Sequence record: NC_024125.2
DNA: 64,000 nucleotides
Reading direction: 5' to 3' (one strand)
Source of the DNA: Escherichia phage vB_EcoM_112
Shown here: piece after piece, positions 62,101 through 63,289 of the stretch
How the letters are laid out: each line of letters begins with the position of its first letter
Numbering within the stretch: position 1 is the first letter of the stretch
Program-made: the position numbers and the translations under genes
The notes under the pieces: model-generated
What the model was told of the DNA's origin: nothing
Databases searched by the model: none
What the model saw: only the letters and a program-made list of their open reading frames with translations

Positions 62101-62481
62101 GCGAATGACAGCTATTCAACATATGTTCGCGATGTTTATGTTCGTTCTGATATTCGTGTTAAAAAAGACCTTGTTAAATTTGAAAATGCTTCTGAGAAGC
62201 TTTCCAAAATTAATGGTTACACTTATATGCAGAAGCGAGGCCTAGATGAAGAAGGCAATCAGAAATGGGAACCTAACGCCGGTTTAATTGCTCAAGAAGT
62301 TCAAGCTATTTTACCAGAATTAGTTGAAGGCGACCCGGATGGTGAAGCTTTACTTCGTTTGAACTATAACGGTGTAATTGGTTTAAATACAGCTGCAATC
62401 AATGAGCATACTGCAGAAATTGCAGAACTTAAGTCAGAGATTGAAGAGCTTAAAAAAATAGTTAAATCATTGTTAAAATAA
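59137..62481 (+). CDS. 37: Long tail fiber distal subunit gp37, with C-terminal intramolecular chaperone domain
   Basis: 1114-aa ORF; N-terminus [22 protein letters not shown]... as T4 gp37; C-terminal ~110 aa resemble the self-cleaving chaperone domain of other phage fibers. Confidence 0.92.
62149..62478 (+). other. Predicted self-cleaving intramolecular chaperone domain (peptidase S74-like) at the gp37 C-terminus
   Basis: ...VYVRS|[31 protein letters not shown]...[15 protein letters not shown]...coiled-coil tail; cleavage after Ser predicted by analogy. Confidence 0.6.
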
Positions 62482-62486
62482 AATGA

Positions 62487-62500
62487 GGGGCTTCGGCCCC
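62487..62500 (+). other. UUCG-tetraloop hairpin between genes 37 and 38
   Basis: GGGGC-UUCG-GCCCC between the gp37 stop and the gp38 SD; sequesters an upstream in-frame ATG at 62483. Confidence 0.5.
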
Positions 62501-62512
62501 TTGGAGGTTTAT

Positions 62513-63289
62513 ATGGCAGTTGAAGGACCGTGGGTAGGATGGTCTGCGAGGGTACAAACTGGAGACCCTTGGATGGGTGGTGCCGCGCAGAGATTGAGAA
62601 TGGGAATTCCGTTTTGGATGAGTAATATGATAGGTCGATCTGTTGAAGTAATTCACACACTTGGAGCGGACCATAACTTCAATGGTCAATGGTTCCGAGA
62701 TAGATGTTTTGAGGCAGGTAGTGCACCTATAGTGTTTAATATCACTGGAGATTTAGTATCATATTCTAGTGATGTTCCTTTATTCTTCATGTACGGAGAT
62801 ACACCTAATGAATATGTTCAATTGAATATACACGGCGTAACGATGTATGGTCGCGGCGGGAATGGTTGGGCTGCTGGAGCGATTGGAGCGTCTGACGGTG
62901 GTGTATGTATCCAAAATGATATAGGTGGACGTCTACGAATTAATAACGGGGGAGCTATTGCTGGTGGCGGCGGTGGCGGCGGTGGATATTCGCAAGCCAA
63001 TAACTGGGCAGGAAAATACGTATGTGGAGGCGGCGGTGGTCGTCCATTTGGCTTAGGCGGAAATAATGGTGCTCGATGGCCTGGTGGAAATGCTAGCTTA
63101 ACAGCACCAGGTGCTGGTGGTAATACTGGCCAGTATTGGGCTGGCGGTGGAGGTGAAGTTGGTCAACCAGGTCAATATGCTAATCCAGGTAATGGTTATT
63201 CAACACCTCCGACAAATCCTGGTGCTGCTGTAGCAGGATCAGCTCCAACATGGCAAAACGTTGGAGCTGTATACGGTTCAAGAGTATAA
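62513..63289 (+). CDS. 38: Receptor-recognising adhesin gp38 (T2-type, glycine-rich motifs)
   Basis: ATG at 62513 ([10 protein letters not shown]...) with GGAGG SD, 258 aa; conserved N-domain ([35 protein letters not shown]) then poly-Gly runs (GGGGGGGG, GGGGG) with variable spacers. Confidence 0.85.

Follow-up and report, generated by a model that had tools for sequence, protein, structure and literature searches.

A probable T2/S16-type long tail fibre tip, with a self-cleaving gp37 and a gp38 adhesin, in Escherichia phage vB_EcoM_112

In a 64,000-nucleotide stretch of the genome of Escherichia phage vB_EcoM_112 (NC_024125.2; this whole stretch is the window below, and coordinates refer to its plus strand unless stated), genes 37 and 38 of the long tail fibre lie next to each other. 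Gene 37 (59137-62481), found in the list of open reading frames (ORFs), encodes the long tail fibre distal subunit precursor of 1114 amino acids and is an exact full-length match to AHY83453.1 / YP_009030860.1 (vB_EcoM_112, KJ668714). Gene 38 (62513-63289) encodes a receptor-recognising adhesin of 258 amino acids with the Pfam domains GP38 and Gp38_N. The phage, formerly named e11/2, is a T-even phage specific for O157:H7 and closely similar to T4 (genome announcement, 2014, PMC4241651). We put the probability at roughly 0.92 that its distal tip is a T2/S16-type long tail fibre, in which a self-cleaving gp37 is capped by a gp38 adhesin.

An earlier note, made from the DNA sequence alone, had described a gp37 of 1114 residues with a tail of about 110 residues, and the ORF agrees with both figures: codon 1005, which encodes the D of DIRVKK, lies at 62149, and 110 residues remain from there. 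The note took this tail for an intramolecular chaperone, and that identification stands. PF13884 (Peptidase_S74, "Chaperone of endosialidase") matches gp37 residues 1004-1063 with 48.5 bits against a cut-off of 22, covering positions 1-57 of the 58 in the profile. The last 111 of the 1114 residues match residues 93-204 of the S16 gp37 structure (6F45_A) end to end (E=9.2e-33) at about 60% identity, and the 83 residues before them can be aligned with the beta-helical tip of the same protein (residues 921-1114 against the 6F45_A C-terminal construct, E=1.4e-45). Weak matches in the structure database were to the MYRF autoprocessing domain (7DC3, E=0.02) and a phage fibre (8JOV). The start of the domain needed a small correction. 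Because the R1003/S1004 bond aligns with the S16 cleavage site, the fragment is one of 111 residues (S1004-K1114, 62146-62478) that begins at 62146 rather than at 62149, and its release is predicted to follow trimerisation.

At the first residue of the Peptidase_S74 domain, within DVYVR/SDIRVKK, we read the predicted autocleavage motif S1004-D-I-R-V-K1009 (62146-62163), with Ser1004 and Lys1009 as the dyad and R1003/S1004 as the scissile bond. Work on endoNF and T5 pb1 is reportedly the source for which residues form this Ser/Lys dyad in Peptidase_S74. Seven phages have a conserved S-D-x-R-x-K motif; in the alignment it is present, preceded by DVY[VI]R, in gp37 of wV7, Sf23, PP01, T2 and T6, and its counterparts are SDRRIKK in S16, SDIRLK in T2, SDSRLK in T6 and SDERLK in 8JOV. 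According to a passage of PMC7917993 that cites Dunne 2018, S16 gp37 ends in an intramolecular chaperone of 113 residues, whose autocleavage at DLNVS^SDRRIKK uncovers the site where gp38 docks. By alignment to this site, the mature gp37 of vB_EcoM_112 is predicted to comprise residues 1-1003 (59137-62145, ending in ...RDVYVR), a trimeric shaft whose tip docks gp38, and cleavage at R1003/S1004 would release the 111-residue fragment. The two proteins differ in the residue that precedes the cleavage-site Ser, which is Arg in vB_EcoM_112 and Ser in S16, and the former has an extra segment before the tip (residues ~955-971).

The tail probably also ends in a coiled coil, as the earlier note had described. 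The heptad register of the C-terminal helix (residues ~1081-1114, 62377-62478) is clean over the final ~34 residues (a = I,I,I,I,V; d = Y,N,H,L,L,L), with hydrophobic residues at 8 of the 11 a/d positions. Here a 21-nucleotide tandem duplication detected with Tandem Repeats Finder (62414-62453, 1.9 copies, 84% match) encodes the successive heptads AEIAELK and SEIEELK. A single-sequence AlphaFold2 model of residues 974-1114 was poor (mean predicted local distance difference test score 45.7, predicted template modelling score 0.27), and the terminal helix was its only moderately confident part. The DNA of the chaperone domain is 95-100% conserved among wV7, Sf23 and PP01 and adjoins a highly divergent shaft, which argues for purifying selection on the chaperone domain.

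Further upstream, gp37 residues 418-567 (60388-60837) match the C-terminal trimerisation domain of gp34 (PF21446, 33.1 bits; PDB 4UXE/5NXF, E~6e-16). This would be a domain common to the proximal and distal half-fibres.

The protein encoded by gene 38 begins with an N-terminal attachment domain (residues 1-40, 62513-62632) that matches Gp38_N (PF21721) with 70.3 bits from profile position 1. Its three tryptophans W7, W20 and W35 are invariant in all aligned homologues and align with those of S16 gp38, which plug into gp37 for docking (PMC6851490). Residues 45-258 match the full GP38 profile (PF05268) with 242.8 bits. Both solved adhesin structures were recovered: the PP01 receptor-binding domain (9V85) with E=2e-137 and six differences in 222 residues (residues 37-258), and S16 gp38 (6F45_D) with E=3e-50 over the full length. 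Homologues of this adhesin occur in 837 records of the phage collection. Identity is 99.6% to the protein of the Shigella phage Sf23, 95% to PP01, 71% to wV7, 61% to T6 and 48% to T2, and falls to a noise level of 13.7% with T4 gp38.

Residues 113-258 (62849-63286), identified by the 9V85 match, form the specificity domain, where glycine-rich motifs and hypervariable segments alternate. Of residues 110-258, 32% are glycine, and runs of eight (G8, 151-158), five (G5, 172-176) and four (G4, 211-214) are separated by variable segments; the succession of an N-domain, poly-Gly runs and variable segments that the earlier note had seen is thus present. By homology, this domain would adopt a polyglycine-II sandwich fold. 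Across the gp38 alignment of vB_EcoM_112, wV7, T6 and T2, the glycine motifs are largely conserved and the intervening segments variable, and in the alignment with S16 the identity of the variable segments is likewise clearly below that of the conserved motifs.

The term "T2-type", used for gp38 in the earlier note, therefore needs dividing: it fits the architecture (GP38, Gp38_N, 9V85 and 6F45_D) and not the sequence subtype, since by sequence the module belongs with PP01, AR1, Sf23 and wV7. T2 and T6, the system of the Henning laboratory, have a C-terminally processed gp37 capped by a gp38 of about 260 residues with glycine-rich motifs and hypervariable segments (PMC3157838). Their gp37 proteins share the DVY[VI]R-SDxRxK motif with vB_EcoM_112 and differ in length (1341 residues in T2, 994 in T6), and the DNA of the gp38 specificity domain has no match in T2 and only two weak 150-nucleotide patches in T6 (66-85%). 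The closest structural counterpart is the S16 tip complex 6F45 (Dunne et al. 2018). As described in PMC6851490 and PMC7917993, its gp37 is a trimeric beta-helix with a self-cleaving SDxRxKK chaperone, and its gp38 is a monomer composed of a Trp-prong N-domain, a beta-helix and a polyglycine-II sandwich; vB_EcoM_112 is predicted to share these features. More remote are the chaperones of endosialidases and of the T5 L-shaped fibre, and MYRF. These share the Peptidase_S74 family (in Pfam and also in MEROPS), a Ser/Lys dyad where the domain begins and a helical C-terminal part, whereas their sequence similarity is distant and their upstream passenger domains are unrelated.

The length of 258 residues given for gp38 in the earlier note is that of the reading from ATG 62513, which lies 31 nucleotides past the gene 37 stop and is preceded, at a distance of 5 nucleotides, by the Shine-Dalgarno sequence GGAGG (62503-62507). 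Read from ATG 62483, the protein has 268 residues and is an exact match to the deposited AHY83454.1 ("receptor-recognition protein"). We rejected this upstream start and preferred ATG 62513 because ATG 62483 has no Shine-Dalgarno sequence and adjoins a hairpin, because PP01 lacks that ATG, and because annotated gp38 homologues have 258-264 residues; Gp38_N also begins at the downstream Met. The deposited start is thus probably ten codons too far upstream, a likely mis-annotation in the public record. The hairpin is an intercistronic element of the C(UUCG)G type between genes 37 and 38 (AGGGGC-TTCG-GCCCCT, 62486-62501), identified from sequence and fold; the 51-nucleotide hairpin region folds with -16.2 kcal/mol (z = -2.3). 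It is identical in wV7, Sf23 and PP01, and a like hairpin is found at the same place in T2 and T4, with a TTCG loop, and in T6, where it is shorter and has a TTT loop, even though the flanking coding sequences of T4 are unrelated.

The window is collinear with T4 positions 96,783-160,901, and aligned 2-kb bins are 88-99% identical. In a blastn comparison of the window with T4, no T4 DNA match was found across 59304-63294. The T4-homologous 5' end of gene 37 (59137-59303, where the alignment ends) forms the left module edge, and the match resumes at 63295 and reaches 99% in gene t, which puts one junction some 56 codons inside gene 37 and the other where gene 38 ends. Compared with T4, the module is a replacement in a window that is otherwise T4-like, and the mosaic character proposed in the earlier note holds in this sense. 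T4 gp37 has 1026 residues, the length given in the note, and its unrelated, His-rich C-terminus cannot be aligned with the vB_EcoM_112 tail; T4 gp38 has 183 residues. Identity of gp37 is 95.2% to wV7 and 28-35% to T4, T2 and T6.

On a finer scale, at least three donor lineages appear within about 1.2 kb, given a wV7-like shaft, a PP01-like patch and an Sf23-like adhesin domain. The distal gp37 shaft (61400-62100) is wV7-like, with 0-6 differences per 60 nucleotides and a patch of 20 at 61960-62019, and is unrelated to Sf23 and PP01. The 5' half of the chaperone domain (62140-62320) shows 0 differences from PP01, and wV7 and Sf23 differ from the window by a common set of 14 substitutions over 62140-62330. 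The 3' half of that domain, the intergenic region and the gp38 N-domain (62380-62740) are near-identical to wV7 and Sf23. Finally, the specificity domain (62750-63290) is 99% identical to Sf23 at the nucleotide level, with 78% or no match to wV7.

The earlier note had also thought the poly-Gly repeats plausible sites of slippage or recombination, and neither suggestion was borne out. In a per-site comparison the breakpoint with wV7 is sharp at ~62821-62829 (residues 103-106), upstream of the first glycine motif, and the right edge coincides with the gene end. As the observed breakpoints flank the glycine-rich domain and none falls in a poly-Gly run, we rejected the glycine motifs as recombination joints. 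This agrees with the crosses of Trojet et al., in which exchanges flank the specificity domain and do not fall inside it (PMC3157838). The runs are encoded by mixed GGT, GGC and GGA codons with one short DNA repeat (GGTGGCGGC, 2.6 copies at 62963-62985, Tandem Repeats Finder), and G8, G5 and G4 have the same lengths throughout 15 close homologues. Variation in the central run is confined to distant homologues, with 7 residues in T2, 8 in vB_EcoM_112 and wV7, and 9 in T6. With a single short repeat and invariant run lengths there is no positive evidence for poly-Gly slippage, which is possible in principle.

The receptor of PP01 is a guide to that of vB_EcoM_112. PP01 gp38 binds the OmpC of O157 via loop E (tip residues A228 and Y230), loop D (G208 and Y209) and loop B, and residues 158-170 are needed for OmpC(O157)-dependent infection (PMC12892980). 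In the same study, loop E reaches into the cleft between OmpC loops 5 and 7, the substitution A228D abolishes infection, Y209 is essential, and G208 cross-links to OmpC loop 5, yet its deletion is tolerated. Following the loop definition of PMC12892980, loops A, B and C of vB_EcoM_112 gp38 are identical to those of PP01 (loop B, Q161-V170, 62993-63022), and Y159, K168, Y169, Y209 and Y230 (PP01 numbering) are retained, PP01 Y209 being Y208 here. Similarity of gp38 has been reported to predict the receptor (PMC12032242). The receptor of vB_EcoM_112 is thus likely to be OmpC, of the O157 or the Shigella type.

This assignment is the weaker part of our reading, and several observations weigh against it. 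The two loops of PP01 that cross-link to OmpC, D and E, are those where gp38 differs. Loop D (N204-Y208, 63122-63136) reads NTGQ-Y against NTGTGY and is one residue shorter; with the following residue it is NTGQ-YW here and NTGTGYY in PP01 (9V85), which gives T207Q and Y210W. Loop E (N224-S230, 63182-63202) reads NPGNGYS against NPGAGYS, so that its tip carries N227 at the position of PP01 Ala228, where A228D abolishes PP01 infection (PMC12892980). The remaining differences in the domain are S198A and I253V, and outside it gp38 residues 4-19 and the gp37 shaft (61400-62150) differ from PP01.

The residues of loops D and E co-vary (residues 198-227, 63104-63193) among otherwise near-identical gp38 proteins. 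One allele (A198, Q207, the deletion, W209, and N or H227) occurs in vB_EcoM_112, Sf23, KMB42 and some E. coli and Salmonella records, prophage-like ones among them; the other (S198, T207, G or A208, Y210, and A or S228) occurs in PP01, EC121 and others. Because the vB_EcoM_112 allele is also that of the Shigella phage Sf23, the phage may favour another OmpC variant than PP01 does, and because the allele is shared with Sf23 and KMB42 and co-varies across the loops, it may tune which OmpC variant binds. That it defines a distinct OmpC-variant specificity or another binding pose is a tentative idea that we regard as rather doubtful; if true, the cleft between OmpC loops 5 and 7 would be recognised otherwise than in the PP01 model, since a polar residue stands where PP01 needs a hydrophobic one.

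Put together, these features suggest the following pathway. Made as a precursor of 1114 residues, gp37 would use its Peptidase_S74 domain (S1004-K1114) to nucleate trimerisation and folding of the beta-helical shaft. The Ser1004/Lys1009 dyad would then cut the R1003/S1004 bond, the chaperone removing itself, and cleavage would leave the gp37 trimer with an exposed flat tip, ...DVYVR. One gp38 would dock there by its N-terminal helical domain (W7, W20, W35), giving a predicted 3:1 stoichiometry by homology, and would stay on the virion. The C-terminal polyglycine-II sandwich of gp38 would present five variable loops to the receptor, most likely OmpC. None of the observations speaks against this architecture.

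Two other arrangements of the tip can be set against this pathway. In T4, gp38 is an assembly chaperone that the virion lacks, and the receptor is bound by the gp37 C-terminus; the gene order 37-38-t is the same here, and homologue records such as those of wV7 and T6 carry the label "distal long tail fiber assembly catalyst". The noise-level identity to T4 gp38, the matches instead to the adhesin families and to both solved adhesin structures, and a gp37 C-terminus that cannot be aligned with the His-rich T4 tip all stand against a T4-type tip, and the RefSeq note for T4 itself calls the gp38 of the T2 subfamily unrelated and the adhesin. We consider such a tip exceedingly improbable for vB_EcoM_112, and the alignments of gp37 and gp38 with T2, T6 and T4 that the earlier note had proposed gave a T2-type and not a T4-type result. 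It is also very unlikely, if marginally less so, that the S74 domain is a non-cleaving relic still attached to gp37: Ser1004, Lys1009 and the whole motif are intact, the domain is conserved beside a divergent shaft, and S16 gp38 docks on the surface that cleavage exposes (PMC7917993, PMC6851490).

The third alternative keeps the proposed architecture and changes only the receptor, to OmpF, FadL, Tsx or OmpA (as in phages of the T2, T6 or K3 type) or to lipopolysaccharide (LPS) alone. T2 uses OmpF and FadL, and T6 uses Tsx. A receptor of this kind would suit the T2 analogy of the earlier note, which had named OmpF and FadL as candidates, and the altered contact residues in loops D and E, with an Asn where A228D destroys the function of PP01 gp38; loop B may also contact LPS sugars (PMC12892980). 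Against it are the identities of only 48% to T2 and 61% to T6, set beside just six differences from the OmpC-binding domain of PP01 over 222 residues, the identity of loops A, B and C to PP01, and the reported power of gp38 similarity to predict the receptor (PMC12032242). In addition, related Shigella phages of T2 type select ompC-resistant mutants, as cited in a passage of PMC12892980. We therefore consider a receptor other than OmpC improbable. Since the module sequence is of the PP01/AR1/Sf23/wV7 subtype, OmpC is the relevant comparison rather than OmpF/FadL, the T2 receptors, which are unlikely for vB_EcoM_112.

The genes around the module form the usual T-even long-tail-fibre operon, with gene 34 (53413-57282), gene 35 (57291-58409) and gene 36 (58472-59128) upstream of gene 37. 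Downstream of gene 38, the holin gene t (63320-63976) is the T4-like right flank (Pfam Phage_holin_T, 393 bits; 99.1% amino acid identity to T4). An exact match to the T4-type late promoter, TATAAATA, is found at 58441-58448, 24 nucleotides before the gene 36 ATG (58472), and on established T4 biology the late transcript of genes 36, 37 and 38 probably starts from it. A further hairpin of the C(UUCG)G type follows gene 35 (58413-58434), succeeded by a T-run and then by TATAAATA at 58441. A scan for sigma-70 promoters and terminators gave counts near the level of shuffled sequence and was uninformative. Three minus-strand ORFs (62364-62660, 62462-62689 and 62818-63000) were rejected as spurious, the last being the poly-Pro mirror of a poly-Gly run. 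In gp35, residues 59-124 (57465-57662) score 32.6 bits with the Pfam profile ILEI (PF15711, Interleukin-like EMT inducer), above its cut-off of 27.

Elsewhere in the window, nrdA on the minus strand (42603-45771) is split into two ORFs around an inserted one. The N-terminal piece (44338-45771, 477 amino acids) carries the ATP-cone, the all-alpha domain of ribonucleotide reductase and barrel profile positions 1-221, and the C-terminal piece (42603-43592, 329 amino acids) carries barrel positions 219-523. The ORF inserted between them (43582-44292, 236 amino acids) carries an I-HmuI NUMOD-like endonuclease domain. T4 has nothing corresponding to the insert (43500-44423) at that place, and several related phages list two nrdA pieces; the arrangement looks like a "genes-in-pieces" ribonucleotide reductase. 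Other insertions and deletions relative to T4 were found at 9712-9773, 14539-14559, 36921-37227, 41182-41657, 48205-48407 and 48695-49112. Several short segments in the pseT, nrdB and frd regions are present only in the window, which in turn lacks the T4 intervals carrying segD (106.5-107.3 kb) and segE (112.0-112.7 kb). These differences are consistent with the report that vB_EcoM_112 has fewer homing endonucleases than T4 (PMC4241651).

The tip module is already known. Its exact proteins are deposited, and the genome announcement noted that the tail-fibre ORFs 225 and 226 of vB_EcoM_112 are PP01/AR1-like and unlike T4 (PMC4241651); sequence, family and mechanism are all published, so there is no novelty here. 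As a discovery it carries little weight, with a published genome, a textbook T-even architecture and crystal structures of the S16 (6F45) and PP01 (9V85) proteins. Within the T-even family, T4 is the odd one out, because the T2/S16-type tip is the predominant form and T4 the exception (PMC3157838, PMC6851490). The block of chaperone domain and gp38 N-domain (~62150-62750) is a natural joint where shafts and adhesins were exchanged. The practical value lies in host-range prediction and in the engineering of O157:H7 biocontrol phages, where the loops of gp38 define receptor choice.

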